64,000 bases of DNA from an uncultured Victivallales bacterium (lineage in GTDB: Bacteria > Verrucomicrobiota > Lentisphaeria > Oligosphaerales > JABHEG01), in assembly GCA_964607765.1 (NCBI GenBank), contig CAZSNT010000033.1, forward strand, positions 3,955 to 67,954, read 5' to 3'. Below the pieces are notes generated by a model, which saw only the letters and a list, made by a program, of their open reading frames with translations, had not been told where the DNA came from and searched no databases. Numbering within the stretch: position 1 is the stretch's first letter; the number at the start of each line of letters is the position of its first letter. Below are positions 21,980 to 52,879 of this stretch, in pieces. The translations under genes and the position numbers were made by a program.

Positions 21980-21990
21980 TGGAAGCCACG

Positions 21991-23469: not shown

Positions 23470-23470
23470 C

Positions 23471-26265: not shown

Positions 26266-26401
26266 GCCGGGTCTTCCGCCGGAAGGCTTGAAGAATGGGG
26301 GAGAACCAAAGGACGATCCTAACCATCGGCAAGCAAGAGAATTCGACAGGAATACGTGCTGTCAACTTTGACAGAGCCTGAACGGGGGACAGGAGATGAT
26401 C

Positions 26402-30187: not shown

Positions 30188-30214
30188 TGTCTCCAATCGC
30201 TTGACGATGTCGAC

Positions 30215-30264
30215 GACGATAGCGGATGACGAGTGCAAGCGCCCGATCGTTCGCCGCTATCGTC
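30215..30264. repeat. 11-bp inverted repeat GACGATAGCGG / CCGCTATCGTC with a 28-nt spacer
   Basis: The arms are at 30215-30225 and 30254-30264, with a further direct copy CCGCTATC at 30267. It sits between two sulfatase genes and could be a terminator stem or an operator. No T-tract follows. Confidence 0.5.
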
Positions 30265-30307
30265 ACCGCTATCCTCAACCGACAGAGACCGGAAAACGGA
30301 GAAGACA

Positions 30308-31789: not shown

Positions 31790-31921
31790 AGGACTCAGAA
31801 CACGAAACACCATGACTCCGGAAGCCGCCGCCGCCGCCCGACAGTTGCCGATGGCTACCGATGGCTGCCGGAAACAGCCGACCGCCGCCGACTGGACTGT
31901 AAGTAGCAGAAGCGAGTACAG

Positions 31922-33400: not shown

Positions 33401-33410
33401 GGGAAACAGC

Positions 33411-34949: not shown

Positions 34950-34951
34950 CC

Positions 34952-35146
34952 ATGAAGCGATTGACACTGCTACTGGCATACTTCAACCTGGACGACGCCC
35001 GTTTTGCCAGGCGCAGCAACGGCGGCGATCTACGCCTGGGTTTCAGCGGAACCAAGACCGATCCCGTGATCGCCGAAGTGCTGGTAAAACCACGACCGAA
35101 CGGACGCGGACGCAAGAATGGCACGCTGCACGGTGAGGAGAGGTGA
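34952..35146 (+). pseudogene. Fragment (last ~45 aa) of the recurrent ~150-aa accessory module
   Basis: The 64-aa ORF ...LLLAYFNLDDARFARRSNGGDLRLGFSGTKTDPVIAEVLVKPR... aligns with ...WRTVVFNIDDARFAGRCHGADLRLGFNGAKTDPVIAEVTVKPRR at the end of 36176..38152. DNA similarity to 38030-38150 is obvious by eye. The first ~100 aa of the module are missing. Confidence 0.55.
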
Positions 35147-35149
35147 CCG

Positions 35150-36085
35150 ATGTCGCACAAGCAACAACCAGACTCCCTGGACTCCCCCGGCGACGCAGGA
35201 AGTGAAGGTATGGATTTCCGCAGCTTGGTGTCCGCCATCCGCCAGGTGCATGCGCACTGTACTGCGCAGGCCAGAGGCGCGGTGAACGTCTGTCTGACTC
35301 TTCGCAACTGGACTGTCGGTTGCTACATCCGTGAATACGAACAGAGAGGCGCTGACCGCGCGCAGTATGGTGCCAATCTGCTCGACAGGCTGGCCACGTC
35401 ACTTCATGGCGCGCTCGACAAGTGCTACACGGCAAGGTACTTGCGCATCTGTAGACGGTTGTACGAGGTGTACCCGCAAATTAGGAAATCGGTGATTTCC
35501 GAATTCAGCGCCAGGACGAAAGGGAAATCGGCGATTTCCAAATTGCCGGAGCATTCGGCAGACAGTGACTGCCAAATCGACACGTCTGCTCCGGTCTCGG
35601 TGTCTCTTCCCGCCGACAGACTGGTCAGGCATCTCTCCTTCACTGCGCTTGCGGAGCTCGTCAAAATCGACGCCCCCCTGAAGCGCGCATTCTACGAGGT
35701 CGAGTGCATCCGCGGCAACTGGTCGGTCCGCGCACTCAAGCGGCAGATCGCCACTCTCTACTTCGAGCGTTCCGGCTTGTCCACAGACAAAGAGAAGCTG
35801 GCAGCCATGACGCAGAGAGGCGCCGAAATCGAAGAGCCGAAACTCGCCATTCGCGACCCGTACGTCTTCGAGTTCCTCGGGCTTCGGCCCCAGGACGCCG
35901 TGGCGGAAAGCGACCTGGAGGCGGCGCTCGTCGAGAACTTGCGGGAGTTCCTGCTCGAGATGGGGCACGGTTTCTGCCTCGAGGCCCAGCAGAAGAGCAT
36001 TGTCATCGGCAACACTCGCGGCTTCGTCGATCTGGTGTCATGGAAGCGGAATGACGACTATGTCGACGTACGGCTGAGAGATTAG
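35150..36085 (+). pseudogene. DUF1016 / YhcG-like PD-(D/E)xK nuclease family gene, C-terminally truncated
   Basis: NVCLTLRNWTVGCYIREYEQRGADRAQYG, APLKRAFYEVECIRGNWSVRALKRQI, IRDPYVFEFLGL and LREFLLEMGHGFCLEAQQK match my recollection of DUF1016 proteins. The ORF stops at ...GFVDLVSWKRNDDYVDVRLRD, right after the first acidic motif and before the expected E-x-K core and C-terminal part. Confidence 0.65.
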
Positions 36086-36087
36086 GA

Positions 36088-36154
36088 CGAAAGATGAAGG
36101 CGAAAGATGAAGGGGGACCACTCCGAGGCCCTGATCTTTCGCCCTGATCTTCAC
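36088..36154. repeat. Imperfect long hairpin made of tandem CGAAAGATGAAGG x2 and inverted CCCTGATCTTYSR x2
   Basis: The left arm is cgaaagatgaagg cgaaagatgaaggggg (36088-36116). The right arm is gccctgatctttcg ccctgatcttcac (28-54). The inner 13 positions pair with 2 mismatches and the outer arm pairs less well. It ends 7 nt before the GGAAGGAG RBS of the next sulfatase. Confidence 0.6.
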
Positions 36155-36175
36155 AACCCCGGAAGGAGCGACGAA

Positions 36176-38210: not shown

Positions 38211-38243
38211 TCCGGCACTGGAGCGGTGCCAAAGGAGCCCCAC

Positions 38244-40649
38244 GTGAAAACACATCTCATCCTCGTCGCAATCTCGCTGGCTCTGGCCTTCGCCACCAGT
38301 TGCGGCCATTCCGCCGTCAACCGCGCCGGCACAGACGTTCAACCCGCGTTTACGGGCCCCGATATCTCCGTCCGGCTGGACGCGAACCCGGCCCTGGCGC
38401 GCGGCGTGGCCTACCTGTCCACGCATGACGAGTCCAGGAACGGCTTTGTGACGCGGCAGGGCAGCGGCGGCTGGCAGGAACAGAGGATGATGTACTTCGC
38501 CGCTACAGACGAACGCTTCAAGCAGGGGCGGACGCCTCTCGTCAAAGTCCACATCGCCTACTTCGACGAGGGCCGGGGCCTGGTCGTGATCAAGTACGAC
38601 TCGAGCGACAAGCATGTCAACCCCGGCAAGAACGCCGGTGTATGGAAGAGCGAGAAGGCGATCGTGTTGACCGACTCGCAACAGTGGCGCACGGCCGAGA
38701 TCATACTCCGCGACGCCCATTTCGCCAACCGTTGCAACGGCGGCGACTTCCGGCTCGAGGGCGCCCCGGTCATCGTCCGCGTTCTGCGCATCGTGGCCGC
38801 CTCGCCGGAGGACCAGGAGCGTAACCGCGTCGCCCTGCGCAACGCACCGCCCCCGCTCGAGGCCAAGATCCAGCCCTTTGCCCTGAGCATGGCCGAAGTC
38901 CTGGCCAAGCTCCGTCCCTACCGCGGCCCCAGCGAGCCGGGCACTGACACCACCACTCTGACCAACAAGGTGATGTGTGGCTACCAGGGATGGTTCAGCA
39001 CGCCGGGGGACGGCTCCGGTCAAGGCTGGACCCACTACAGCGGCGCGATCGGGTTCAAGCCAGGAAGCTGTTCCATCGACCTCTGGCCCGACGTGTCCGA
39101 ACTCGATCCCGACGAGAAGTACGAGACGTATTTTCGACATCGCGACGGCAGCACGGCGCACGTCTACAGCCCCATGAACCGCAAGAGTGTCGTCCGTCAC
39201 TGCCGCTGGATGGCCGAGGCCGGCATCGACGGCGTCTTCGTGCAGCGCTTCGCAAGCGTTGCCGGAAACGCCAAAGCAGTCTACAAGAACAACACCGTGC
39301 TCATGAACGTGCGCGAAGGCGCCAATCGCCACGGCCGCGCCTACGCACTCATGTACGACCTGTCCGGCGGCCGAGGCGCCGCCGACAGGATCATTGCCGA
39401 CTGGAAGTCGCTCGTGGACGGCATGGGGCTGAGCAAGGACCCCAAGGACCGCGCCTACCAACATCACAACGGCAAGCCCGTGGTCGCACTCTGGGGCCTC
39501 TTCGCCGAGCGCGACTACTGCCTGCCCGTGTACGAACGCCTCCTCGACTTCTTCAAGAACGACCCGAAGTACGGCGGTTGCACCGTCAAGGTCGGCGTCA
39601 ACAACAACTGGCGCGTCGGCAAGAGCGCCAACCACGACCGCGTCCGCCGCATCATCCAGCAGGCGGACATCGTGTCGCCCTGGACGGTCGGCCGTTACGC
39701 CACGCCCGAGGGAGCCGACCGGCACATGCGAACCCACAACGTGCCGGACCAGAAGTGGTGCGACGCCCACGGCAAGGACTACATGCCGGTCATTTTCCCC
39801 GGCTTCAGTTGGCACAACATGCGCCACGGCCAGTCTGCCCTCGGCGCTACACCACGCCTGCAGGGCCGCTTCCTCTGGCGCCAGATCACCGCCGCCAAAG
39901 CCGCCGGCGCACGCATGCTCTACATCGCCATGTTCGACGAGGTCGACGAGGGCACGGCCATGTTCAAGTGCACCAACGACCCGCCCGTCGGCGCCAGCCC
40001 GTTCCTCGACTACGAAGGACTGCCGAGCGACTACTACCTATGGCTGGCAGGCCAAGCCCGGCTCCTGCTCGAGGGCAAACTCGAACCCACACGGCGTCCC
40101 CCTGCGCGTCCCGGCCTGGTCATCGACTACAAGTCCGAAGACGGCACGGGTCTGCCCGAGGGTCTCGACGAGATCTCCGTCGTGCTGCGCAATCCGCAGC
40201 ACTGCCGCGGCCTGCGCCTCAAACCGCACGGCGCCGAATCCCGCAACATCCCCGCTGTCAAGGGCGGTCGTCCCGCCTGGGTCAGCACCCCCAAACGCGG
40301 CCCGGACGAAGGCCGCATGATGTACATCAAAGTCGAGTACGCCGGATTCCGCAACGGCCGAACCCCGCATGTCCGGCTCACCATCGACTACTTCGACAGC
40401 GGCGAGGGCGAGGTCCGCGTCGTCTACGACTCCAGCGACAAGACCTGGGGCACCGTCCCCAGCCGTCCCGGCGCCTGGAAAGAAGCCGGCCGCTTCATCC
40501 TGGGTGCCTCCAACACCTGGAAGACCGCCACCTTCGATATCCCCGACGCGCTCTTTGTCGGCCGCTGCAACGGTTGCGACATCCGCCTCGAGTTCCCCGC
40601 CACTGCCGACCTCGCCCTCGGCGCCGTGCGACTAAAGAAGATACCGTGA
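38244..40649 (+). CDS. Exported (lipoprotein-like) protein: accessory module, uncharacterised GH-like catalytic core, second accessory module
   Basis: GTG 38244 lies 6 nt after AAAGGAG (VKTHLILVAISLALAFATSCG). The N-terminal module is at about 38355-38798. The core (KVMCGYQGWF...GIDGVFVQRF...VSPWTVGRY...FPGFSW...AMFDEVDEGT) is paralogous to 24964..26265. The C-terminal module is at about 40173-40646 (...MMYIKVEYAGFRNGRTPHVRLTIDYFDSGEGEVRVVYDSSD...WKTATFDIPDALFVGRCNGCDIRLEF...). Confidence 0.7.
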   Translation: MKTHLILVAISLALAFATSCGHSAVNRAGTDVQPAFTGPDISVRLDANPALARGVAYLSTHDESRNGFVTRQGSGGWQEQRMMYFAATDERFKQGRTPLVKVHIAYFDEGRGLVVIKYDSSDKHVNPGKNAGVWKSEKAIVLTDSQQWRTAEIILRDAHFANRCNGGDFRLEGAPVIVRVLRIVAASPEDQERNRVALRNAPPPLEAKIQPFALSMAEVLAKLRPYRGPSEPGTDTTTLTNKVMCGYQGWFSTPGDGSGQGWTHYSGAIGFKPGSCSIDLWPDVSELDPDEKYETYFRHRDGSTAHVYSPMNRKSVVRHCRWMAEAGIDGVFVQRFASVAGNAKAVYKNNTVLMNVREGANRHGRAYALMYDLSGGRGAADRIIADWKSLVDGMGLSKDPKDRAYQHHNGKPVVALWGLFAERDYCLPVYERLLDFFKNDPKYGGCTVKVGVNNNWRVGKSANHDRVRRIIQQADIVSPWTVGRYATPEGADRHMRTHNVPDQKWCDAHGKDYMPVIFPGFSWHNMRHGQSALGATPRLQGRFLWRQITAAKAAGARMLYIAMFDEVDEGTAMFKCTNDPPVGASPFLDYEGLPSDYYLWLAGQARLLLEGKLEPTRRPPARPGLVIDYKSEDGTGLPEGLDEISVVLRNPQHCRGLRLKPHGAESRNIPAVKGGRPAWVSTPKRGPDEGRMMYIKVEYAGFRNGRTPHVRLTIDYFDSGEGEVRVVYDSSDKTWGTVPSRPGAWKEAGRFILGASNTWKTATFDIPDALFVGRCNGCDIRLEFPATADLALGAVRLKKIP

Positions 40650-40680
40650 TGACATCGACGGGCGGAAGAGAGAACACGTG

Positions 40681-40691
40681 GTCCGGAAAAC
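40681..40691 (-). repeat. Solitary exact copy of the abundant motif (GTCCGGAAAAC on the + strand)
   Basis: It lies in an intergenic region, 29 nt upstream of the operator-like palindrome at 40720. Confidence 0.8.
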
Positions 40692-40719
40692 GACATGCGG
40701 CTTGTCACACGTCTCCTTC

Positions 40720-40733
40720 CGTAAACGTTTACG
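40720..40733. promoter_or_regulatory. Perfect 14-bp palindrome CGTAAACGTTTACG, LacI-family operator-like (O1)
   Basis: It is self-complementary with a central CG and AAACG/CGTTT half-sites, the architecture known for LacI/GalR/PurR/CcpA-type operators. It ends 7 nt before the -35 box. A LacI-family gene lies downstream in the same gene string. Confidence 0.6.
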
Positions 40734-40740
40734 TCTGCGA

Positions 40741-40769
40741 TTGATTGCTTCGGAAATGCCGCGTATAAT
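40741..40769 (+). promoter_or_regulatory. Sigma-70-like promoter TTGATT-N17-TATAAT
   Basis: The -35 TTGATT is at 40741-40746, the spacer is 17 nt, and the -10 is a perfect TATAAT at 40764-40769. It lies 60 bp upstream of ATG 40829. Applying the E. coli consensus to this phylum is an assumption. Confidence 0.55.
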
Positions 40770-40779
40770 TGACGTGAGT

Positions 40780-40793
40780 CGTAAAGGTTTGCG
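40780..40793. promoter_or_regulatory. Second operator-like site CGTAAAGGTTTGCG (O2, 12/14 identical to O1)
   Basis: It starts 11 nt downstream of the -10 box. Both sites are followed by TCTG, giving an 18-nt direct repeat CGTAAASGTTTRCGTCTG, centre to centre 60 bp. Confidence 0.5.
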
Positions 40794-40828
40794 TCTGGAT
40801 GCATGACAGGGCGGCAAGAGAACCAGCA

Positions 40829-43711
40829 ATGACCAAATTGATCAGCACCTTCGCCTTGATCCTCACCGTGTCGGCCGCGTTCGCCGACAAGCCCAATCTG
40901 GTGCTCTTCTACGCCGATGACTTGGGTTGGGGCGATCTGAGCGTGTACAACAAGGAACCCGGTTACTTCCGACACACGCCGAACATCGACCGGATCTTCG
41001 AGCACGGTGTTCGGCTCGAGAACTACATGACGCACTGCGTTTGCTCGCCCTCGCGCGCCGGATTGCTGACCGGAAAACACTATGCGACGGTGTCGGCCGG
41101 CCCGGCCACGGGCGGCACGCTGCCGAACGACATCCGGAACATAGCGAAGGACTTCCGGGCCGCCGGCTACAGGACCGGCGCGTTCGGCAAGTGGCACAAC
41201 GGCATGCCCAATTTCCCGGCAGACGGCAACGGCCAGGCGTTCGACTACAACAAGGACAGGGTCTGGAATGAGTTGCACCGTCAACACACCTGCGATCTGA
41301 CCAACGGCATCTTCGACAACCACAAGGGCTGGGAGTGGGGCGACGGCGTGAATGCCTACGGGTTCGACCGCTGGGTGGGCTATTACAACGGCGGCGGGGA
41401 CCTCTTCGACCGGTATGTCAACTGGCACCACGACATCGATTGGTGGCATGACCGACGGTACGTCCCGGACGAGAAGGGGTACACCACCGACCTGATCACG
41501 ACGCACGCCGTCGCGTTCATCGAACAGAGCAAGGGCAAGCCCTTCTTCTGCTACATCCCCCACGAAGCCGTGCATGCGCCGCTGCAGGTCAAACTGGCCG
41601 ATCTGAAGGCGCTGTGCAGGCGGTTCCCCGGCGAGTGGGAGTACGTGCGCAACGTCGTCAGCCCCAGAAGCGGGCGCCGAATCGAGGACGCGGAGGAGAT
41701 CCGCTGCGAGGGCGGCGCCGAGTTCGACGCCGGCAAGATCGATCCGGAGAAGAAGCGTTTCCAACCGTTGATCTACGCCACCTACCTCTACTCGCTGGAC
41801 GCGAGCGTGGGCCGCGTGATGCAGAGAATCGAGGAACTGGGTCTCGCGAGCAACACGATCTTCCTCTTCACTGCGGACAACGGTGCCACGTCGGGCGGCT
41901 GCAACCTGCCGTTCCGGGGCAGCAAGCACACGCTCTGGGATGGGGGCGTCCACGTGCCTGCTGCGGTCTGGTGGCCAAGGAACTTCGATGCGAACACCGC
42001 ACCGTATACGCCGGGGAACAACCGATACACCGGGTTCATCGGTTACCTCGATCTGTACCCGACGCTGCTGTCCATGGCCGGCCAGTCCTGCCTGGCGCAG
42101 GGCCTTGACGGGATGGACTGCTGGAAGAACCTGAAGGACAACACCAATCCCCGGCCCGGCATGGAGAACGCCTATCACTGGATGTGGAGTGACCACGGGA
42201 TGATCCGCACGAACGGCTGGAAGTTGTTCTACTCCGAGAGCGCCAAGCGGGTCGAGCTGTACGATCTCGCGGCGGACGTCGGAGAGGAGACAAACGTCGC
42301 TGCCGCCCACCCGGAAGTACGCGACACGCTGATCGGTATGCACAGGAAGTGGCTCGCCGACAATGGGTATGCCGTGTCGTACCTGCCGGTTGACAAGACC
42401 CGTGTCGGAGCGCCAGCCCCGAAGGGCGACGTGTTGGAGATCAGGGCCACGCAGACGCGGGACTTGGGGAACGCGCACAATGAGGGCGTGTACCTGCGTC
42501 TGGCCAAGAGCGATGGCTGGGGTGAGAAGCTCGGCGGCTACGTCGAGTGCGGCGATCAGCTTGAGTACGATATCTACGTCTGCGAAGACAGCGACATCTC
42601 GCAGGGCATCTCCTACTGTGCCGGCGCGGGCTGGAAACCGTTCCTCAACCCGCGGAACGGTCTGAACCAGGACGGCGCGTCCCCGCAGCTGCTCGAGCAC
42701 CGGAAGGGTACCTGGACGCGTCAGGCGGTCGGCATCGGCAATATGTGTCCGCGCGCCATGGTGGTCAGCTACGTCGCCTTGCAGAGCCGGAAGGCCGGGA
42801 CTCACCACTTCTATCTGGACAACGTGGTTGTGCGCCGCAGCGACGGCACGATCCGGAACGTTGTCTGGGCGTCGCGGAACGACTCGGGGCCGCTGATCGT
42901 GCGGCATCGGAACAGGAACTACAACAAGCTCGCGGACGCGCTCGGCGCAAAGGGCTTCCCGTTCAGCGCGATCGACATCACGGCGACTCAGGTCGATGCG
43001 GTCACACAGGCCAAGCCCAAGGAGGCACGACAGCCTGCCGACGAGGGCGCTTCGTGGACGCCGCTGTTCAACGGGAAAGACCTCTCGGGGTGGTCCGTGC
43101 AGTGCCGCCCGAAAGACCGGGACAAGGGCTACTGGCGAGTAGACGCGGGCTCAATCCTGGTCGATTCGGTCGGTCACAGGGACCACAACTACATCTGGCT
43201 GATGAGCGACGGCGAGTACTCCGACTTCCGGCTGAAGCTCAAGTTCCAGATCCACAAGGGCATCAGTGGCAACAGCGGCGTGCAGATCCGCAGTCGCTAC
43301 GACACTGCTGCCGGCTGGCTGGACGGTCCCCAACTGGATATCCATCCCCCGAATCCAATGCGGGCGGGGTTGATCTATGACGAGACCCGGGGCACGAAGC
43401 GCTGGATCTGCCCCTCGCTGGAGAAAGGGAACCACAGGATCCCCGCGGCCAAGACAAACCCGAAAGTGAAGCTTGTCTACGGTGAGGGGACCTGGAACGA
43501 GATGGAGATCGTCGCGCAGGGCACGCACATCACGTGCATCGTCAACGGCGAAGTCGCGTCCGACTACGACGGTGCAGGTGTGCTGGATGATGCGGACCAC
43601 CGGGACCACAACGTCGGGCTGCGGGGACATGTCGCCCTGCAGTTGCATTCGCGAAGCGAGCTGAAGGCTCGTTTCAGGGACATCCGCATCCAGGAGAGGA
43701 CGAGTAAATGA
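40829..43711 (+). CDS. Exported Cys-type sulfatase fused to a central beta-sandwich-like region and a C-terminal DUF1080 (3-keto-disaccharide hydrolase family) domain
   Basis: The preferred start is ATG 40829 ([19 protein letters not shown] signal). The signature is [15 protein letters not shown] and it contains LFTADNGA. The C-terminus [12 protein letters not shown]...[11 protein letters not shown]...[12 protein letters not shown]...GNSGVQIRS...[19 protein letters not shown]...GHVALQLH...FRDIRIQE is the DUF1080 pattern. Confidence 0.85.
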
Positions 43712-43868
43712 GAACGCACCCTCACCGGAGCCGGAACGGGTCGGCGGGAGAATGAAGCGTTATGTTATCGCCACAGAAACAGGCTGCATCTTCGAACCCG
43801 GACTACAGCGGAATGGCCTCAGGATAGGGGCGGTGTGGACGCTCTGCACGCGGGACCAATCTCGCTCA

Positions 43869-43900
43869 CCCACGGCACAAGGCCGTGGGGGTCGTTCGCA
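43869..43900 (+). promoter_or_regulatory. GC hairpin (CCCACGGC-acaag-GCCGTGGG) running into the box GGCCGTGGGGGTCGTTCGCA
   Basis: The box at 43881-43900 is near-identical to 45357-45377. It lies 76 bp upstream of the Tat-oxidoreductase ATG. Confidence 0.5.
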
Positions 43901-43975
43901 AACATTCCAGCAACCCAGCAATCCAACAATCCAACTGGGCATGAGACTGCTGTGACTGAGAACAGGAGTACGAGC

Positions 43976-45274
43976 ATGAATACGTCCCGCCGGGAGTTCA
44001 TCCAACGGGCAACCACGTGGGCGGGTGCCGCGGCAGCGCCGGTCATCCTCCCTTCGTCTGCCTGGGGGGCAGCCGGAACCGTGGCGCCAAGCAACCGTCT
44101 GAACATCGGCCTCGTCGGCATGGGCAAGATGATGTGGGGGCACATGAACGGCTTCCTTGGCCGGAAGGATGTGCAGATCATCGCTATCAGCGACGTGGAG
44201 ACAAAGCGCCTGGACAAGTGTGCTGAGAAGATCAACAGTACCTACTCGGAACGCTTCGGCAAGGACTACAAGGGCGTTCAGATTTGCCGAGACTTCCGCG
44301 AGCTTAACGCCCGCCCAGACATCGACGGCGTGGCCATCGCCACCCCGACCAACTGGCACGCCATCCAGTCTATCGATGCCATGAAGAACGGGAAGGACGT
44401 CTACTGCGAGAAGCCGCTGACCTTAACCATTCAGGAAGCGGAGGCCATCAAGCTCGCCGCGCGGCGCTACAACCGAATCTTCCAGACGGGCAGCCAGCAG
44501 CGCTCCGATTTCAAGTTCCGCTTCGCCTGTGAACTCGTGCGCAACGGTGCGATCGGCAAGATCAAGATCGTGCACGTGAACTGTGGCGGCCCCGCCCGCG
44601 ACTGTTACCTGCCCGCGCAGCCCACGCCCGAGACTCTCGACTGGGACCGCTGGCTGGGGCCTGCTGCCATGCGTCCGTACAACGAGAAGCTCTGTCCGCT
44701 GGACGACCACAAAGGCTGGCCGCGATGGCGTGACTACTGGGACTACTGCGGCGGCGGCATGTACGACTTCGGCGCGCATCACTTCGACATCGCACAGTGG
44801 GGGCTCGGCATGGACGGGACAGGCCCCGTCCAGATCATCCCGAAGGAAGCCAGTGAGCACAAGCTCCTGACCTACGTCTACGAGAACGGCGTCCCGATGA
44901 CGCATGGAGGCGCCAAAGGCGGCGGATCGATTCAATTCGTCGGCGAGAAGGGCACCGTGAATGTGGGACGCGGCTTCCTCAAGACGGACCCGGAAGACCT
45001 CATGAAGGTGAAATGGGGCCCGGCAGACACCCGTCTGTACGAAAGCCGCGACCACAAGGGGAACTGGCTCGACGGCATGCGCACGCGCCGTCCCTGCATC
45101 TGCACGGCGGGAGTAGGCTGCAGCACCATCACGGTCTGCAGCTTGGGGAACATCGTCTACCGCCTGAAACGCACACTGAAGTGGGACCCGGCACGGGTGC
45201 AGTTCGTCAACGACCCGGCCGCTGACCGCCTGCTTGGAAGGAGCATGCGGGCACCGTGGACTCTCACTGTTTAG
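43976..45274 (+). CDS. Gfo/Idh/MocA family oxidoreductase with a twin-arginine (Tat) signal
   Basis: ATG 43976 lies 6 nt after ACAGGAG. MNTSRREFIQRATTWAGAAAAPVILPSSAWG has the SRRxFI Tat motif. It contains the Rossmann motif LNIGLVGMGKMMWGH and ...VYCEKPL. Confidence 0.85.
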   Translation: MNTSRREFIQRATTWAGAAAAPVILPSSAWGAAGTVAPSNRLNIGLVGMGKMMWGHMNGFLGRKDVQIIAISDVETKRLDKCAEKINSTYSERFGKDYKGVQICRDFRELNARPDIDGVAIATPTNWHAIQSIDAMKNGKDVYCEKPLTLTIQEAEAIKLAARRYNRIFQTGSQQRSDFKFRFACELVRNGAIGKIKIVHVNCGGPARDCYLPAQPTPETLDWDRWLGPAAMRPYNEKLCPLDDHKGWPRWRDYWDYCGGGMYDFGAHHFDIAQWGLGMDGTGPVQIIPKEASEHKLLTYVYENGVPMTHGGAKGGGSIQFVGEKGTVNVGRGFLKTDPEDLMKVKWGPADTRLYESRDHKGNWLDGMRTRRPCICTAGVGCSTITVCSLGNIVYRLKRTLKWDPARVQFVNDPAADRLLGRSMRAPWTLTV

Positions 45275-45328
45275 ACCAGAATGGTGCCGGGATGAGGCCA
45301 AGAAACTGCTGCACGTGGCCCTGCGACC

Positions 45329-45377
45329 CCACCCACCTTGCGTGGGTGGTGAGCGAGGCCGCGGGGGTCGTTTCGCA
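45329..45377 (+). promoter_or_regulatory. GC hairpin (CCACCCAC-cttgc-GTGGGTGG) followed by the box GGCCGCGGGGGTCGTTTCGCA
   Basis: The hairpin is at 45329-45349 (8-bp stem, 5-nt loop) with no T-tract. The box is at 45357-45377, 55 bp upstream of ATG 45432. Compare 43869-43900. Confidence 0.5.
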
Positions 45378-45431
45378 GCTTACCCTACCCTCATTCATGC
45401 CTGGACCACGCTAGTAACAGGAAGCTCGACA

Positions 45432-48400
45432 ATGAAGAGATACCTGCACATCTATACCGTCCTTCTGTTTGTCTGCGGCGCGGCGAGCGGGGCGCCGGAG
45501 GGACTCAAGCCGCCATCCGAAGCGGACATTGCGAAGATGGAAGCCGCCATGCCGGCCAAGCCGACCGTCAAGCCGACCAAACCGCGCAAGCTCCTCATTT
45601 TCTCGCAGTGCGAAGGGTTCAAACACTCCTCCATCCCGTTCGGGGAGAAGGCGTTCGAGATCATGGGCAGGAAGGCCGGCGCGTTCACTACCGTCGTGGC
45701 GGATGACTGCGCCATCCTGGAATCGCCCGAGTTCGACACATTCGACGCGATCCTGATGAACAACTGCACCATGCGTCTGCCCCTGCTGAACATCGACACA
45801 AAGGGCATGGACGAGGAACAGAAGGCCGCCGCGGACGAGCGTGAGGCCAAGGCGCAGAAGCGCTTCCTGGATTTCATCCGCAACGGCAAGGGCCTTATCG
45901 GTGTCCACGCGGCAACCGACTGCCTCTACAAATGGGAAGAGTACGGCGAGGCCGTGGGCGCCTACTTCTGGGGGCATCCATGGAGCGAAGACGTCGGCGT
46001 GAAGCTCGACGATCCCGGACATCCACTGCTTAAAGCCTTCAACGGCCTGCCATTCATCGTGGGCGATGAGATCTACCAGTTCCGCGAGCCGTATTCACGT
46101 GACACACACCGCGTCCTGCTCAGCATCGACCCGGCAGAGACCAACATGAACAAGGACTCGATCCGGCGCGAAGACGGCGACTTCGGGGTCGCGTGGATCC
46201 GGGAATACGGGAAAGGCCGCGTCTTCTACTTCTCGCTCGGCCACCGGCATGAGATCTTCTGGAACGCGCCACTGATGCAATGCTATCTGGACGGCATCCA
46301 GTACGCGTTCGGGGACCTGAGGGCGGACGCAACACCCAGTGCTCAGCTCAGTCCCGAGTACCTGGCGGAATCGGCTGCCGCAGCGCTGGCCACCGGGCTG
46401 GAGAGTGTCTTTGCCGAACTGAAACGCTACACGCTGGGCGAGGACGAGAGTGTCCCCAAGCAAGTTGCGGCCCTTGTCGTCGAGCATCAGGGAACGGCGG
46501 GACCGGTCCGAAGCCAGGTCGCACGGCTGTTCGCAGCATTGGCCGCGAACACCGAGGCGACGCCCGACTCCCGGGTATTCGCCTGCAGACAGTTGCGCCT
46601 GATCGGCGGCGAAGCGGCCGTGCCGATTCTCGTCGGACTCCTGAAAGATGACGCTCTCCGCCACCCGGCACGCATGGCGCTCGAGGCCATCCCGGGAGCT
46701 GCCGTCGACACCGCGTTGCTCAGAGCACTCCCGAACAGCAACGGCCTGGCCAAAGCCGCCCTGATCGAGTCGCTCGGAGCAAGAGGCGCAACCGCAGCAT
46801 CCTCGGCACTGACCGAGAGCCTGCGCAGTGCAGAGCCCGTGGTTGCGGAGTCCGCAGCCAACGCGCTGGGCCGGATTGGCGGGAAGCAGGCGGCTGACGC
46901 GCTGCTGGCTGTGCGCGCAAGCGTGCCCGATACGCTGAGGCCCGCCGTCGACCGCGCCATCCTCGCGTGTGCGGAGTCCGCGCGTCTGGCGGGCCATGCG
47001 ACAGCCGCGGCGCCATGCTACGCTGCATTGGCGGCGCCCGACGCTGCCCCGCACATCCGCGCCGCAGCCGTGTATGGCCAGGCCATGATGAAAGGCGCGC
47101 CTGCCGCAACCGAAGTGGCCGAGGCGCTGCGGTCCGAACCCCGGGAGATCGCGCAAGCCGGTGCGCGGCTTGTCCGAGCTCTTCCCGGGGAAACGGTCGT
47201 CACACAGACATGCCAGGGCCTCGCCACGCTCTCCCCTGCCACTCAGGCTCTGGCGCTCGATGCTTTGGCTGCCCGCGGTGACCGCCGGGCGCAGGATGCC
47301 GTGCTGGCGCTCATCACGACTGAAAACGCGAGCGTCCAAGCAGCCGCTCTGCGCGCTTTGGAAGCCCTTGGCGATGCCAAGTCAGTAATGCCCGTTGCCG
47401 CTCTGGCCGCCGACGAGGAGGCCGACAAGAAGGTGCGGGAGGCGGCACGTCAGGCGCTCGAGCGCATGAACGGGCCCGGGGTCGACCAGGTCCTGATCGA
47501 CGCCATGGCCGAGGCGGGAACTGCGGCCAAGATCGAGTACGTCAAAGCGCTGGGCACGCGCAAAGCGCGAGCCGCCCTACCCGCGCTCTATGACAGCGTT
47601 CTGGCAGAGGACAGGACGCTCGCGAAGGAGTCCTGCAAAGCGATCGCGGTCTTGTGTGAAACATCCGAGCTGCCGAAGATCGTCGACCTCATCATCGAGA
47701 CGTCGAGCAGCAGCGTCAGGACGCAGCTCGAAAACACACTTGTGAACGTGGCACGACGTACGGATGGTGAGACCGCGAAGGTCGCCGCCGCCCTTGCGGG
47801 TCTTGAGCGGAATCCCCCGAAACCGGCCCGCATCTCTCTGCTCGCGGCCCTCGGTAAGATTGGGGCCGCACCGGCGCTGCCCGTCTTGGAGACGGCTTTG
47901 AAGGACGCTGACGTGGAGATCCAACGGGCGGCTGTGAAGGCGCTGGCGGACAGCTGGCCGACTGCCGACCCCATTCTCTCGTTACGGAAAATCAGCCGCG
48001 AGGCGGAGGATCTGGTTCTCCGCGTGCTGTCGCTGCGTGGGTACGCACGCATGCTGGCGCTGCCCAGCGATCGGCCCATGTCAGAGACTCTCAAACTCTA
48101 CAATGAAGCGTTGGAGCTGGCGAAAGGCGACCAGGAGAAACGCACACTGATCACCGGTTTGGGCGAGCTGGCTCATCCCGATGCCCTCACCGCCGTGAGA
48201 CGGTTCCTGGACGACGAGGCCGTGCAGGAAGAAGCCCTGATGAGCGCGCTCAGTATCATGCAGAACGTCGGCGGCAAAGGCATGACATTCGATGCGTGTG
48301 TGAAACCCAAGACCGGGTCGAACGCAATCGATGGCAACCCGAAGACCCGCTGGACCAGCGGCAAGCGCATGACGGGCGGCGAGTGGTTCCAGGTCACACT

Positions 48401-49073
48401 GCCGTACGAGACACAGATAAGGGAGATCTTCCTGGACGCCGGCCAGGAGGGGCGCGATCAGCCCCGCGGTTGGGAAGTCTACGTGTCGCGTGATGGCGAG
48501 AACTGGGGCGAGCCGGTCGCTACCGGAGACGATCCGAAGAAGAAGGCCTTTACGATCACGTTCCCCCCAAGAGACGGCCGCTGCGTGAAGATCGTGCAGA
48601 CCGGCACGGCAGGTCTCTTCTGGTCCGTCAACGAGATCCGCATCAACGGCCTGCCGGACCTCAAAGAGCTCTCTGAAATCCCCTCGGACAGCTGGAAAGT
48701 CTCAGCTGCGCGCTCCGCTAAAGACGCGCCGCCGGAGAACGCCATCGACGGCGACAGAGAGAAGCGCTGGGGCACGGGCGGCGGCATGAAGCCCACCGAC
48801 TGGTTCATGATCGACATGGGCGAGGAGCGCACCGTACACAAGATCGTCATGGACGCTGCCAAGTCCGGAAGCGACTACCCGCGTGAGTACCGCATCTACA
48901 GCTCCCTCGACGGCGAGGAGTGGTTCGGTCCGATCGGGGCTGGAAAAGGCGAGAAGGCGCTCGTCACGGCAGTCTGCCTGCCAACCAAGGCGCGGCACAT
49001 CAAGATCACCCAGTTGGGAGACGAAGAGAAGAAGTGGTGGTCGATGTACGACCTCCAGATCATTGGAGAGTAG
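45432..49073 (+). CDS. Exported giant protein: ThuA-like domain, long HEAT-repeat region, two F5/8 type C (discoidin) domains
   Basis: The start is ATG 45432 (MKRYLHIYTVLLFVCGAASGA signal). The ThuA blocks are KLLIFSQCEGFKHSS, GKGLIGVHAATD, GAYFWGHPW and GKGRVFYFSLGH. The middle has many ...ALGxxGxxxAxxxL... HEAT-like repeats. The C-terminus has AIDGNPKTRWTSG...WFQVTL and AIDGDREKRWGTGG...WFMIDMG. Confidence 0.8.
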   Translation: MKRYLHIYTVLLFVCGAASGAPEGLKPPSEADIAKMEAAMPAKPTVKPTKPRKLLIFSQCEGFKHSSIPFGEKAFEIMGRKAGAFTTVVADDCAILESPEFDTFDAILMNNCTMRLPLLNIDTKGMDEEQKAAADEREAKAQKRFLDFIRNGKGLIGVHAATDCLYKWEEYGEAVGAYFWGHPWSEDVGVKLDDPGHPLLKAFNGLPFIVGDEIYQFREPYSRDTHRVLLSIDPAETNMNKDSIRREDGDFGVAWIREYGKGRVFYFSLGHRHEIFWNAPLMQCYLDGIQYAFGDLRADATPSAQLSPEYLAESAAAALATGLESVFAELKRYTLGEDESVPKQVAALVVEHQGTAGPVRSQVARLFAALAANTEATPDSRVFACRQLRLIGGEAAVPILVGLLKDDALRHPARMALEAIPGAAVDTALLRALPNSNGLAKAALIESLGARGATAASSALTESLRSAEPVVAESAANALGRIGGKQAADALLAVRASVPDTLRPAVDRAILACAESARLAGHATAAAPCYAALAAPDAAPHIRAAAVYGQAMMKGAPAATEVAEALRSEPREIAQAGARLVRALPGETVVTQTCQGLATLSPATQALALDALAARGDRRAQDAVLALITTENASVQAAALRALEALGDAKSVMPVAALAADEEADKKVREAARQALERMNGPGVDQVLIDAMAEAGTAAKIEYVKALGTRKARAALPALYDSVLAEDRTLAKESCKAIAVLCETSELPKIVDLIIETSSSSVRTQLENTLVNVARRTDGETAKVAAALAGLERNPPKPARISLLAALGKIGAAPALPVLETALKDADVEIQRAAVKALADSWPTADPILSLRKISREAEDLVLRVLSLRGYARMLALPSDRPMSETLKLYNEALELAKGDQEKRTLITGLGELAHPDALTAVRRFLDDEAVQEEALMSALSIMQNVGGKGMTFDACVKPKTGSNAIDGNPKTRWTSGKRMTGGEWFQVTLPYETQIREIFLDAGQEGRDQPRGWEVYVSRDGENWGEPVATGDDPKKKAFTITFPPRDGRCVKIVQTGTAGLFWSVNEIRINGLPDLKELSEIPSDSWKVSAARSAKDAPPENAIDGDREKRWGTGGGMKPTDWFMIDMGEERTVHKIVMDAAKSGSDYPREYRIYSSLDGEEWFGPIGAGKGEKALVTAVCLPTKARHIKITQLGDEEKKWWSMYDLQIIGE

Positions 49074-49092
49074 TATCCCCTGAACACTGACC

Positions 49093-50172
49093 ATGAGCCT
49101 ATCAATCCAGGAATTTGCGCGTCTTGCGAACACATCCGTAGCCACGGTCTCGCGGGCGCTTAACAACAAGCCGGGCGTGAGTGCCGCGCGGCGCCGGAGC
49201 ATCTGCGCCCTGGCCGAACGGCTCGGCTATCAGCCGAACCAGTTCGCCCGGAACCTGCAGGCGCAGCGCAGCAACACGCTCGGGTTCGTGTCCGCGAACC
49301 TGGACAACAAGACACATCAGGCGCTGTTGCGGCCGCTGGAAGCCGCTGCACGGGACCGTGGTTACGAGATGCTCGTGGCCGACTCGCGCCTGGACGCAGG
49401 TCGCGAGCGCACCAACATCGAGGCCTTGCTGCGCTTCAGGGTGGAAGGGTTCGTGCTGTGCCCGGTCTCTGATGACGACAGTGCGGCGGATACGGCTTTC
49501 ATCCGTGACCTGCAGCTGCGCCACGTCCCGTTTGTGGTGGCCGGGCGCGTGCCGGATCTCCTCCTCGACTCTGTTTCCAACGACGAAGAGGACGCGGCAC
49601 GGGCACTCACCCGACATCTGCTCGAGCTTGGGCACACGCGCTTCGGCGTCATCGACGGCGTCAGGACCAGCCGCGTCGGCACTGAACGACTCCAGGGAAT
49701 AGTCGAGGGACTCGGAGCCGCCGGGCTCCACTCACCCGGGGACACTTTGGGCACGCCGACACTCCGAACAACTCAGGCGCAGGAGCCGCAGGACGAAGTG
49801 GTTGGTGAGACCGTCCTTGAATGGCTCCGTCAGGATCTGCCGCCCACTGCGCTGGTCTGTCTCCAGAACCACCTCGCGATGCGGCTGCCACGGCCGCTCG
49901 GACGCGCCGGCCTCGTTATTCCGAGCGATGTCTCGCTGGCCACGTTCGACGACAGCGACTGGTGCCGGTTTGCCGACCCCTCGATCACCGCGGTCGCGCC
50001 GCGGCCGGAGATGCTGGCCCGCAAGCTGTTCCAGGCGCTGATGGCGCGCATCGACGATCCGGACGCAGCACCAGCCATTCATACCGTGCCCCAACGCCTG
50101 CATGTGCGTGAATCAACGGCAGCTGCCCCCGGCGTGCCGAAGGCTCAATCGGACGCTTTTTCCCGCCTGTAG
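49093..50172 (+). CDS. LacI-family transcriptional regulator
   Basis: The HTH is MSLSIQEFARLANTSVATVSRALNNKPGVSAARRRSICALAERLGYQPNQFARNL, followed by a periplasmic-binding-protein-like sugar-binding fold. It starts 20 bp after the previous gene. Confidence 0.9.
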   Translation: MSLSIQEFARLANTSVATVSRALNNKPGVSAARRRSICALAERLGYQPNQFARNLQAQRSNTLGFVSANLDNKTHQALLRPLEAAARDRGYEMLVADSRLDAGRERTNIEALLRFRVEGFVLCPVSDDDSAADTAFIRDLQLRHVPFVVAGRVPDLLLDSVSNDEEDAARALTRHLLELGHTRFGVIDGVRTSRVGTERLQGIVEGLGAAGLHSPGDTLGTPTLRTTQAQEPQDEVVGETVLEWLRQDLPPTALVCLQNHLAMRLPRPLGRAGLVIPSDVSLATFDDSDWCRFADPSITAVAPRPEMLARKLFQALMARIDDPDAAPAIHTVPQRLHVRESTAAAPGVPKAQSDAFSRL

Positions 50173-51005
50173 ACACGTACCCAATCGATCTCCATGCCGG
50201 CCGGATAATGGGCGGGATTGGTCGGCCCCGAGCCGTTCACCCACTTGCCGCCGATCTGCATGGAGAGGATGAAGTAGAACGGCTGATCGAACGGCCACTG
50301 TTTCTCGCCTTTCGCCGGTACACGCGGGTAGGTGTGCGTGGGCTTGCCGTTCACCGTGAAGACGATCTTGTCCGCGTCCCACTCGCAACCGTACGTGTTC
50401 CAGTCATCACGCTTGATCCCGGCCGTGCCGCCCTTCCGCGGCGTGTTCGTCTTGTCGACCTTCACCGTGTACTCGGAATGCACGGTCTGATAGACCTTGT
50501 GATCGAAATTCAGGTGCTCCATCAGGTCGATCTCGCCGTTGGCCGGCCAGCCCTTGTCTGCTCCCATCATCCAGAGCGCCGGCCAGGCGCCCTGCGCGCT
50601 CTTGAAACGGGTACGGATCTGGACCTTGCCGTACTGGAAAGCGAACTTCCCCCTGCTCGTCACACCAGCCGTCAGGAAGGGGGCCGGGTCGTCATCCTGC
50701 CTGTCGTTGGCAATCCCGCGGAGGTGCAGCACACTGTTGCCGATCTGCAGCAGACGCGGATCAGCCGACATGGTGTTCTTCCAGTCTGGTTTCCCGCGTG
50801 TACAGCGCGTCCACTTGGAGCCGTCCAGCTTGTCTCCGGCAAACTCATCCTGCCACACCAGCTCCCAACCGGGCAGGCCGGCATCCCCTGATGCAGCGGC
50901 CGTTGATTCACTGTTCGCCCCGGCGCTACTGCCGGCATGCACACCTGAAGTAAGGACCACCCAAACCGTCGACATGACAACAATCCTCTCCATTGCCCTG
51001 CTCAT
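50145..51005 (-). CDS. GH16 glycoside hydrolase, exported
   Basis: It contains WELVWQDEF, WPALWMMG and the catalytic ExDxxE motif in NGEIDLMEH, and ends near ...DWVRVYR. ATG 51005 overlaps the upstream stop (ATGA). Confidence 0.85.
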   Translation of the reverse strand: MSRAMERIVVMSTVWVVLTSGVHAGSSAGANSESTAAASGDAGLPGWELVWQDEFAGDKLDGSKWTRCTRGKPDWKNTMSADPRLLQIGNSVLHLRGIANDRQDDDPAPFLTAGVTSRGKFAFQYGKVQIRTRFKSAQGAWPALWMMGADKGWPANGEIDLMEHLNFDHKVYQTVHSEYTVKVDKTNTPRKGGTAGIKRDDWNTYGCEWDADKIVFTVNGKPTHTYPRVPAKGEKQWPFDQPFYFILSMQIGGKWVNGSGPTNPAHYPAGMEIDWVRVYRREKASD

Positions 51006-52879
51006 TGTGACTGCTCCTTCGCCAACACAAAGACCTCGGCCGGGGACAGACCGCGAGCCCAGACCGACACCTCGTCGAGCGCCCCGACGAACGGCTTGAC
51101 CTGGAGTGCATCAAACGCCTTCCGGCTGTAGCCCAACCCGCCGAAACTCAGACGCACGGACTGGTTGAACCGCAACGTGCGATCCGCTCCCTCCAGACGC
51201 GTCTGCACGGGGTTGCCGTCCACGTACAGTATGACCTCCGACAGCCGACAGCCATCGGCCGGCATCACGGCCGCAAGATGGTGCCACTCGTCGTCATTGA
51301 GTCCTGCGGAGTCCGCAACAGCCCTCTGAGTCTTCGATACCTGCACTTCGGGTTTGCCACCGTTCAGGTTCAGGTTCAGGAAACCGTCAAGTTTGCCGCC
51401 CCAAATCGACCCGGTGTTGACGAGGACGTGATTCTGCGTGGACTTGGTCTTGAGCCACAGTGCGTAGGACACCGCACGGTCGCTGTGGTGCGGGCCCATG
51501 GCAAACACGGCCATGCGGCTGTCTTTGCCGAACTGCGCCGCTCGGCCGCGTACGCCGTCAACCGGCACCAACCCGCTGCAGAGCGCGCTGTAGTGCTTGC
51601 CGAACGCCCCCGCGTTCGGCGACACGCGCGTGCACTTCACCCCACGCAGCATGACGCCCGTGCCATCCTTTGTCTTGCCGCGCAAGCCCACGATCGGGTG
51701 CTGTTGCAGCGGCATGTCCTGGTCGAACGCAAAGTGGTACAGCCTGGCCGACGGATCCAGAAAGGACAGCTCCCCCGTGGCTTCGAACGCGGTATTGGCA
51801 CCAGTCTTGTCGATAGTCAGCTGGCCGATCCGCTTGTATTCGCCGTCGGACGGCTTGCTGCCCGTCTGATTGTGGCAGACGATGTCAATCCGATCGTCGG
51901 CAACGTCGACTGTCAGGAAGTTATTGAAGACATTGCCGCGACTGACGAGCTGGATGAGATCAGACTCGGGATCCTTGGTAACCGTGTTGGCATGGACTTC
52001 GCCCGCGAAGTAAATATCGACGCGGTGTTTGCGCAGCGTCTGCCAGAATTCACAGCTCGTGTCGCCGTCCATCATCATGCCGCTGCTGTTGACCTTGCGC
52101 ACCGGATGGATGACCGGTAGATGCGCCTGCACGAAGATGTGCCTGACACCGGCATCTTTGCGCGCCTCGCCCAGCACGTGCTCGAGCCACTCCAGGTGTT
52201 TTCCGGCCACCGTGCCTGTGACTGCGCCTTGGTCACCGATGACCTTGCTCGGGCCCTCCTGATGGAAAACATCGACAGTGACGAACAACACGTTCTTGTG
52301 GCGGACTGCGTAAGAGGTGGACTCGTAGGGCGTTCCCAGCGGGCGTGACGGAGCGCTGCCGATCGGTGCCCTGTACAGGAAACGTCCACCGTCCGAAGCG
52401 GTGTTGAACTCCTTTGCGAAGGCGGCTCGGAACTGGGGCTGGCAGCGGGCGACTGCGGACCCGGCCGGCCACGGGTTGTCACCGAGTTCGTGGTCGCCGA
52501 CAGCCATCAGGAGCATCGGGTAGCCGCCTTTGCGGAAGGACCTCACCATCCCCGAGTAGCACAGATGCCCCGCCTTCAGGATCGACTGTTCGGGAGACAG
52601 GCCAGGCTCGAACTTCTTGATGAACTTCGGCGTATCCCAGTGCCCGCCGTTGCTGTCGCCCGGCAGCAGAATCAGATCGCCGCCGAACGTCTCGCGCAAC
52701 ATGGTGACGTTGGCGACATCCTGTTCGACCGCCGCCGCGAACCAGTCAGGGTTCTTCGCGCTCTGCGTGTATTTCTCCGCCGAGTGCCAGTCGGCCAATG
52801 CAATGAACCGCCACGAGTCTCCGGCCCAAGCGTGGACACTGAACAGCAGGGCCAAGAACCACGGCATCTGTCTCGTCAT
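51002..52879 (-). CDS. Exported calcineurin-like metallophosphoesterase fused to a C-terminal LamG/concanavalin-like domain
   Basis: ORF 51002..53236, trimmed to ATG 52879 (MTRQMPWFLALLFSVHAWAG signal). The phosphoesterase motifs are ALADWHS, LLPGDSNGGHWD, AVGDHELGD, VQAHLP and AGEVHAN. The C-terminus ...DEWHHLAAV...LYVDGNPV...FVGALDEVSVWARGLSPAEV is LamG-like. Confidence 0.7.
   Translation of the reverse strand: MTRQMPWFLALLFSVHAWAGDSWRFIALADWHSAEKYTQSAKNPDWFAAAVEQDVANVTMLRETFGGDLILLPGDSNGGHWDTPKFIKKFEPGLSPEQSILKAGHLCYSGMVRSFRKGGYPMLLMAVGDHELGDNPWPAGSAVARCQPQFRAAFAKEFNTASDGGRFLYRAPIGSAPSRPLGTPYESTSYAVRHKNVLFVTVDVFHQEGPSKVIGDQGAVTGTVAGKHLEWLEHVLGEARKDAGVRHIFVQAHLPVIHPVRKVNSSGMMMDGDTSCEFWQTLRKHRVDIYFAGEVHANTVTKDPESDLIQLVSRGNVFNNFLTVDVADDRIDIVCHNQTGSKPSDGEYKRIGQLTIDKTGANTAFEATGELSFLDPSARLYHFAFDQDMPLQQHPIVGLRGKTKDGTGVMLRGVKCTRVSPNAGAFGKHYSALCSGLVPVDGVRGRAAQFGKDSRMAVFAMGPHHSDRAVSYALWLKTKSTQNHVLVNTGSIWGGKLDGFLNLNLNGGKPEVQVSKTQRAVADSAGLNDDEWHHLAAVMPADGCRLSEVILYVDGNPVQTRLEGADRTLRFNQSVRLSFGGLGYSRKAFDALQVKPFVGALDEVSVWARGLSPAEVFVLAKEQSQ

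Follow-up and report, generated by a model that had tools for sequence, protein, structure and literature searches.

A conserved exported dehydrogenase and ThuA-HEAT gene pair with a lineage-specific sulfatase-DUF1080 fusion in a mosaic, LacI-associated locus of an uncultured Victivallales bacterium

We analysed a 64,000-nt stretch of contig CAZSNT010000033.1 (assembly GCA_964607765.1) from an uncultured Victivallales bacterium, referred to here as the window, and focused on its positions 40720–50172. Four genes follow each other there on the + strand: a sulfatase fused to a DUF1080 domain (g1), a Gfo/Idh/MocA oxidoreductase (GFO; g2), a ThuA-HEAT protein with two discoidin domains (g3) and a LacI-family regulator (g4). 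These genes, their domains, their Sec and twin-arginine translocation (Tat) signals and the promoter ahead of them, all of which had been described in an initial annotation of the DNA, were found in open reading frame (ORF) calls, Pfam searches and motif scans (Table 1). We propose, with belief and doubt about evenly weighted, that they form a LacI-repressed mosaic unit whose core, an exported dehydrogenase with a ThuA-HEAT protein, would feed the known oxidise-eliminate-hydrate route of glycoside cleavage, and to which g1 is a lineage-specific addition.

The four genes are a mosaic and not one evolutionary unit, as only the GFO and ThuA-HEAT genes are widely conserved. In a neighbourhood survey with one genome per GTDB species, at least 573 stretches encoded a relative, and 80 loci were kept. 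Of the 75 loci whose upstream sequence was long enough, 67 had a g2-like Tat-type GFO gene as the immediate same-strand neighbour upstream of the ThuA-HEAT gene, with a median gap of 72 nt; among the discoidin-bearing loci, the GFO gene was upstream in 22 of 23. The pair was present in Lentisphaerota, Kiritimatiellota, Verrucomicrobiota, Hydrogenedentota, Planctomycetota, Armatimonadota, Calditrichota, Ignavibacteriota and Acidobacteriota, and g3 belongs to a family conserved over its full length in Lentisphaerota, Kiritimatiellia, Hydrogenedentota and Sumerlaeota. Neither a LacI gene (at E<1e-10) nor a g1-type sulfatase was detected in any of the 80 loci, and a sulfatase of any type was found in just one. 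The initial annotation had treated the four genes as one set, which does not hold for g1 or for the regulator, since LacI joins the pair only in the closest clade.

The relatives L085–L087, which belong to a Lentisphaerae lineage and come from several metagenomes, share 75–83% amino acid identity with the locus and have no g1. Their gene order is a GH99-like gene, a 47-aa ORF, GFO (83% amino acid identity), ThuA-HEAT with two F5/8C domains, and LacI (75%). Window positions 38284–40653 align with L085 203–2575, and 43973–50119 with L085 2733–8739. As L085 has the flanking genes in the same order and lacks the sulfatase, a 3.3-kb indel, spanning 40654–43972 and carrying g1 together with its promoter and the two operators, interrupts an otherwise syntenic block. 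We read g1 as a lineage-specific local addition, which would recruit a sulfatase into the regulon and is not integral to the conserved machinery. The GH99-like gene immediately upstream of g1 probably belonged to the ancestral unit, because its counterpart in L085 directly precedes the GFO gene.

Two other candidate explanations were rejected. A fixed DUF1080-GFO-ThuA triad in the closest relatives was ruled out by the genes upstream of the pair, which are a standalone DUF1080 gene of another subfamily in L082, an unrelated ORF in L083 and L084, and the GH99-like gene in L085. The idea that g1 is of foreign origin was likewise rejected on composition, as the G+C content and the G+C content at third codon positions (GC3) are uniform.

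The neighbours of the conserved pair point to the chemistry in which it could take part. DUF1080 was detected with a subfamily hidden Markov model in 25 of the 80 ThuA-HEAT loci, an enrichment that is to be read as an estimate without genome-wide background frequencies. Independent support comes from domain fusions: Pfam searches of the Planctomycete loci revealed recurrent fusions of xylose-isomerase-type TIM barrel with DUF1080, of DUF6807 with DUF1080 and of ThuA with DUF1080, in addition to recurrent DUF1080 proteins of ~370 aa directly downstream of the ThuA-HEAT gene. Since DUF1080 recurs near ThuA-HEAT and is fused both to ThuA and to the TIM barrel, the ThuA-HEAT module is probably tied to 3-keto-glycoside chemistry. 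The claim that the Tat-exported GFO, ThuA and DUF1080 families are linked is therefore upheld in many genomes by gene neighbourhood and domain fusion alike. Among 73 neighbours of the discoidin-type loci we counted five extra GFO genes, four short-chain dehydrogenases/reductases (SDR), three DUF1080 genes, three TIM barrels, one sulfatase and no LacI.

The Planctomycete loci share with the window the GFO gene followed by the ThuA-HEAT gene. They differ in having no discoidin domains, in their 2–10 GFO paralogues, and in having separate DUF1080, TIM+DUF1080 and DUF6807+DUF1080 genes. In six loci from Pirellulales and Sedimentisphaerales (L025, L029, L052, L072, L080 and L081), the ThuA-HEAT gene lies within arrays of Tat-type GFO paralogues, about ten at most, which suggests that a single ThuA-HEAT protein may act as partner to many dehydrogenases that differ in specificity.

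The route to which we relate the pair was characterised in Bacteroides thetaiotaomicron and Alistipes, where a Tat-exported GFO with locked NAD oxidises glycosides at C3, TIM-barrel and DUF1080 proteins of the same pathway (BT2156–BT2160/AL1–AL5) eliminate and hydrate, and a second reductase regenerates glucose (Liu et al. 2021, PMC8121099; Nasseri et al., bioRxiv 10.1101/2024.03.25.586180). DUF1080 in that system is a 3-keto-glycoside 1,2-lyase/hydratase, and not the hydrolase that the initial annotation took it to be (same sources). In Sinorhizobium and Agrobacterium, ThuAB from the thuEFGKAB operon is, in the work cited by PMC8121099, a glucoside 3-dehydrogenase implicated in the formation of 3-keto-disaccharides.

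The unit has in common with BT2156–BT2160/AL1–AL5 a Tat-exported GFO (predicted here), an exported DUF1080 and a dedicated regulator. On the other hand, that regulator is SusR-like in BT2156–BT2160 and of LacI type here, the Bacteroides cluster has no ThuA-HEAT-discoidin protein, and DUF1080 is fused to a sulfatase only in the window. With ThuAB, the unit shares the adjacency of a ThuA-family gene and a GFO gene, whereas here the GFO gene comes first and the ThuA gene second, both products are exported, HEAT repeats and two discoidin domains add ~900 aa to ThuA, and an ABC transporter is missing. To our knowledge, the oxidise-eliminate-hydrate route was described only recently and in gut Bacteroidota only. 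The combination was thus not as uncharacterised as had been supposed, since the Tat-exported GFO and DUF1080 route is already known, and the supposition holds only for the ThuA-HEAT-discoidin partner and the sulfatase fusion.

The sequence of g2 places it as a predicted Tat-exported, distant relative of the BT2158/AL3 glycoside 3-dehydrogenases. It matched PF01408 (1.8e-19) and PF19051 (1.2e-30), and its best solved relatives were the AL3-type dehydrogenases 8tdf and 8tdh (~1e-25). In the alignment to 8tdf, where the numbering of the AL3 paper equals the chain index + 29, the AL3 active-site residues Gln161, Asp248 and His252, for NAD and OH-3, are kept in g2 within QTGSQ and DFGAH. The ThuA domain of g3 covered the full length of PF06283 (121 bits, cut-off 33.4), and its model (predicted local distance difference test score, pLDDT, 96) matched the ThuA-like folds 4pxy, 4e5v and 1t0b. 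No CxxCH haem motif was found in g3.

By analogy with rhizobial ThuAB and with BT2158/AL3, g2 would be exported folded through Tat, presumably with bound NAD(P), and g2 and g3 would oxidise a sugar hydroxyl, probably that of C3, of periplasmic glycosides. The conservation of the pair suggests that g3 could be an obligate partner of g2 or a scaffold that tethers it to glycans. The resulting 3-keto-glycoside would then be cleaved by elimination and hydration, a step for which the DUF1080 domain of g1 is the only candidate in the unit; alternatively, this domain may be a lectin-like targeting module.

Regarding the regulation, g4 has the features of its family, namely an N-terminal helix-turn-helix (HTH), a sugar-binding fold and a palindrome with central CG at the candidate target promoter. 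The two operator-like sites O1 and O2 bracket the promoter and are 60 bp apart, centre to centre; we estimate a chance below 1e-3 that a second site, with no more than 2 mismatches, would fall within 100 bp of the first. The promoter is the sole match within 40000–51500, and the scan alone is not significant, as shuffles give 1.5 sites. The layout of operator, 7–9 nt and TTGAnn recurs at window position 17677, before a HAD-hydrolase gene that opens a 32-kb + strand block, and on a contig from the same sequencing run (L088). The latter carries two such sites (1273–1400, one at 1354) before a LacI paralogue that is 64% identical and is followed by a sulfatase gene. Because operators flank the promoter and the same operator-promoter layout recurs at both places, control of the g1 promoter by g4 is likely, as the initial annotation had proposed; g4 would repress the promoter by binding both flanking operators. 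The recurrence also hints at a possible regulon that extends beyond these four genes.

Several observations weigh against the proposed unit and its place in the 3-keto route. Neither a xylose-isomerase-like lyase of BT2156 type nor a second reductase of BT2159 type was found within 40720–50172, and no AP_endonuc_2 TIM barrel was detected in the ~40 window ORFs scanned. No operator-like sites were detected on L085–L087 despite their 75%-identical LacI. The gaps between g1 and g2 (264 nt) and between g2 and g3 (157 nt) are long and leave room for internal promoters; a sequence scan found no terminator-like site between any of the four genes. g2 scored 157.7 bits against the NCBIfam BT_2158 model NF058561, whose cut-off is 750, with profile positions 1–257 of 487 matched, and in place of Arg192 and Trp195, which bind sugar in AL3, g2 has other residues (GGPAR), Tyr349 falling outside the alignment. 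For ThuA, the fold search gave no mechanistic lead, its matches being confined to ThuA-like entries from structural genomics and to GATase1-like domains, and literature searches on its mechanism turned up genetic or annotation-level statements only.

The DUF1080 domain of g1 adds to these points. In Foldseek, the BT2157-type and AL2 structures (BT2157 3osd/8tda, 8rr2, 9fbe and AL2 8v31) showed 17–20% identity to it with template modelling (TM) scores of 0.52–0.59, while its fold also matched the carbohydrate-binding module (CBM) family CBM66 with TM 0.75 relative to the target. The subfamily profile aligned with the BT2157-type chains 8tda/3osd over ~80 N-terminal residues only (E ~7e-6). The closest DUF1080 relatives are fused to beta-lactamase, GH43, O-methyltransferase and Kelch domains, with a ThuA fusion also seen.

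The full model of the initial annotation is a dedicated pipeline for sulfated glycans, in which g1 would desulfate, g2 and g3 would oxidise C3 and DUF1080 would cleave, and which would stand in for glycoside hydrolases on sulfated polysaccharides. As for the first step, g1 has the features of an S1 formylglycine-dependent sulfatase, namely the CSPSR formylglycine motif (C-x-P-x-R), an N-terminal DD, GKWH, DNG and an export signal, with matches to S1 sulfatases among Protein Data Bank (PDB) entries up to 5e-49. With marine S1 sulfatases, whose nearest solved members are the S1_19 kappa/iota-carrageenan enzymes 6prm and 6b0j, g1 shares the fold, CSPSR, the Sec signal and a setting rich in sulfatases and glycosidases; it differs from the marine enzymes in its extra C-terminal region, typical of a ~740-aa family, and in DUF1080. 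Residues 505–745 had no sequence match in the PDB.

Every part of such a pipeline is predicted to be exported and is encoded downstream of a single promoter flanked by operators, in an island that holds 11 sulfatases and several glycosidases. DUF1080 is recurrently linked to ThuA-HEAT/GFO loci, and a standalone DUF1080 gene precedes GFO in L082. In other metagenomes, the nearest homologues of the g1 sulfatase (68–70% identity) adjoin a gene for a small exported ThuA protein; orthologues of the small ThuA of the window (65–73% identity) are found 9 nt upstream of them (L090 738–3889; L091 6118–9269). Small ThuA and sulfatase are thus a recurrent pairing, which favours a link between ThuA and sulfatases.

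Against the pipeline stand the absence of g1 from the syntenic L085, the near absence of sulfatases from ThuA-HEAT loci (1 of 80), and the fusion being a singleton. No other case of the fusion was found: among the best 120 homologues of the g1 sulfatase, only g1 itself has a DUF1080 tail, the ten nearest DUF1080 relatives include no sulfatase fusion, and a scan of Joint Genome Institute (JGI) metagenomes with the junction region yielded no second fusion and a single distant DUF1080 only. As 11 of the ~40 window genes are sulfatases, a sulfatase adjoining any given gene is expected by chance and is weak evidence, so that the adjacency is uninformative. The DUF1080 of g1, in addition, belongs to another subfamily than the characterised lyase/hydratases. 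From sequence, a desulfate-oxidise-cleave pipeline for sulfated glycosides is plausible; given a singleton fusion and an uninformative adjacency we offer it as a possibility, and in its full, dedicated form we regard it as unlikely.

A second alternative is that the genes have separate jobs, with g1 an exo-sulfatase bearing a CBM-type DUF1080, and g2 and g3 a periplasmic sugar oxidoreductase unrelated to glycosidic bond cleavage, for instance one for monosaccharide oxidation or reduction like the Zymomonas GFOR. Together, the sulfatase and C-terminal region of g1 represent a family of ~740 aa that is common in Planctomycetota, Verrucomicrobiota, Kiritimatiellota and Bacteroidota, and the homologues bear LamG, FN3 or type IX secretion system (T9SS) tails at the position of DUF1080. 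The promiscuous fusion partners of the subfamily and the CBM66 match fit the same idea, and so do the Planctomycete loci, where ThuA-HEAT lacks discoidin and is followed by a separate DUF1080-bearing gene, as would be expected of interchangeable binding modules. GFOR is also among the solved relatives of g2 (1e-12).

The DUF1080 domain of g1 scored 119.9 bits against PF06439 (gathering cut-off 26.8), and the top Foldseek matches of its model (pLDDT 91.5) were all DUF1080 structures, the best being BT3469 (4jqt) with 28% identity. At E<1e-3, 4571 relatives were found, and the nearest of them (45–55% identity) are either standalone proteins of ~260 aa or fused. The channel residues of BT2157/AL2 (Glu103, Asn134, Glu164, Gln166, Tyr190, Lys245, Gln273 and His275) served as a yardstick: by motif reading, NSG and LQxH are present, and the central motif is GPQVD as opposed to ExQ. 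The BT2157-type chains did not rank among the alignments listed in the PDB phmmer search, the profile search or the search with the L082 DUF1080 query. Within the subfamily of g1, the polar residues N98, Q118, D120, H207, Q221 and H223 are invariant, and R128 and D134 nearly so. By these comparisons the domain appears to be of another subfamily than the BT2157/AL2 lyase/hydratases, and may be either a candidate lyase/hydratase or a lectin-like targeting module.

Invariant polar residues of this kind typically mark a conserved site for catalysis or ligand binding and speak against a set of separate jobs, as do the TIM-barrel+DUF1080 fusions and extra GFO paralogues, which amount to the same set of enzymes as in the 3-keto pathway, and the closer relation of g2 to AL3 than to GFOR. 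We therefore consider separate jobs an improbable account of the locus.

It is very improbable that g2 is a self-contained NAD-dependent glycosidase of GH109, GH4 or GH188 type, in which a single active site would carry out oxidation, elimination, addition and reduction, with no need of DUF1080 or ThuA. GH109 enzymes are Tat-exported Gfo/Idh/MocA folds, and the GH109 structure 6t2b is a weak match to g2. That match (3e-6) is restricted to the Rossmann domain and compares with 1e-25 for the AL3-type enzymes, and a system of two proteins is favoured by how strictly the GFO gene is paired with ThuA-HEAT.

There is very little chance that the sulfatase-DUF1080 fusion arose as an error of assembly or sequencing in the metagenome-assembled contig: the g1 protein is on record from one NCBI contig alone and lacks independent assembly support (an exact look-up on assemblies gave no match, an independent Logan assembly has the exact g2, g3 and g4 proteins and not that of g1, and the JGI metagenomes gave no close junction relative), whereas the reading frame is continuous, the composition is uniform, the ~740-aa homologues end exactly where the 20-aa hydrophilic linker of g1 begins, and the DUF1080 part has no signal peptide of the kind its standalone relatives carry. 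Because of these last two features, g1 looks like a true domain accretion.

If the GFO and ThuA-HEAT pair, which is very widespread, uncharacterised and found alongside DUF1080 and TIM-barrel lyase-type genes, is a functional unit, then ThuA would gain a role, and the alternative pathway would extend to environmental degraders of sulfated and complex glycans in the Planctomycetes-Verrucomicrobia-Chlamydiae (PVC) group. The work on the BT2156–2160 pathway leaves the recycling of the exported, cofactor-locked dehydrogenase as an open point. Perhaps ThuA-HEAT is the missing obligate partner of Tat-exported, NAD-locked glycoside dehydrogenases in PVC and other phyla, which tethers them to a glycan, in the window by way of the two discoidin domains, or re-oxidises them or hands on their product, while in this bacterium a sulfatase-DUF1080 lyase/hydratase couples desulfation to the non-hydrolytic cleavage of sulfated polysaccharide ends; this we put forward as a long shot. 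One could see in the sulfatase fusion a natural experiment on the coupling of desulfation to the oxidise-eliminate-hydrate route; as a single case, it is not to be generalised.

Table 1. Features of the locus and related features elsewhere in the window
Feature	Position (nt)	Strand	Details
Operator-like site O1, CGTAAACGTTTACG	40720–40733	.	Perfect 14-bp palindrome, LacI-type; 7 nt upstream of the -35 hexamer
Sigma-70-type promoter-like site, TTGATT-17 nt-TATAAT	40741–40769	+	10/12 positions match
Operator-like site O2, CGTAAAGGTTTGCG	40780–40793	.	2 mismatches; just downstream of the -10 hexamer
g1, sulfatase-DUF1080	40829–43711	+	Alternative ATG 40799; Sec signal
g1, Sulfatase PF00884	40892–42082	+	aa 22–418; 3e-45
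g1, family-conserved C-terminal region	42356–43048	+	aa ~510–740; no Pfam match
g1, DUF1080/PF06439	43055–43693	+	aa 743–955; 1.8e-34
Structured element, copy 1	43806–43905	+	Core GGCCGTGGGGGTCGTTCGCA at 43881–43901; fold z-score -3.2
g2, Gfo/Idh/MocA oxidoreductase	43976–45274	+	432 aa; twin-arginine motif SRREFI; GFO_IDH_MocA + C2 domain
Structured element, copy 2	45275–45380	+	Core GGCCGCGGGGGTCGTTTCGCA at 45357–45377; fold z-score -2.8
g3, ThuA-HEAT-2x F5/8C	45432–49073	+	1213 aa; signal peptide
g3, ThuA domain	45588–46307	+	aa 53–292; 1e-34
g3, HEAT-repeat solenoid	~46539–48266	+	
g3, two F5/8C (discoidin, CBM32-like) domains	48309–48656, 48714–49049	+	
g4, LacI-family regulator	49093–50172	+	Starts 19 nt after g3; PF00356 HTH + PF13377 periplasmic-binding-protein fold
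Possible third operator CGTAATCGTTTACT (17677–17690), 9 nt, then TTGAAC-16 nt-TATTCT	17677–17727	+	Layout as at O1
GH99-like gene	38226–40649	+	807 aa; immediately upstream of g1; directly precedes GFO gene in relative L085
Small exported ThuA protein	26396–27379	+	327 aa; ahead of five sulfatase genes
Second Gfo/Idh/MocA gene	4467–5936	-	Other subfamily than g2; 35 kb from the unit

The gaps between g1 and g2 and between g2 and g3 have a similar stretch of ~100 nt in common, with a 21-nt core, GGCCGYGGGGGTCGTT(T)CGCA, a likeness of which none is expected by chance. Both copies fold more stably than shuffled sequences, and no Rfam family was found within 40500–50500. The relatives have no such intergenic element, and their g2–g3 gap is 26–29 nt. 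It may serve in processing or in stability, or it may be a small repeat.

The window has a G+C content of 63%, and GC3 is high in its real genes. It represents a large island for the utilisation of sulfated glycans in a Lentisphaerota (PVC) bacterium. Its 11 sulfatase genes (at 21928–38152, 40829 and 61621–63851) are interleaved with genes for GH38, GH99-like, GH29, GH2 and GH16-like enzymes and for LamG proteins, and two GH32 genes are present as well. The family assignment of the GH99-like gene upstream of g1 is uncertain, as the match to Pfam GH99 is only partial and does not reach the gathering score. A shorter paralogue of it, with ~66% nucleotide identity over parts and no Pfam match, is located at 24928–26265, just before the small ThuA gene. 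No NCBIfam match was obtained for the small ThuA, the GH99-like protein or the DUF1080 of g1.

The second ThuA gene and the second Gfo/Idh/MocA gene, which the initial annotation had pointed out, are both real. The latter belongs to a minus-strand cluster (4467–9357) with a GH29 fucosidase carrying F5/8C, then a 639-aa HEAT-repeat protein and then the Gfo/Idh/MocA gene, which echoes the theme of HEAT, discoidin and GFO, each in separate genes. Within the sulfatase array, a DUF1016/YhcG PDDEXK-nuclease gene (35150–36085) may be an insertion; genes of this type are frequently mobile or defence-associated. At 12720–16007, a 1095-aa protein of unusual architecture is encoded, which combines a hydrazine-synthase-alpha middle domain with DUF7402, F5/8C and PD40 repeats.

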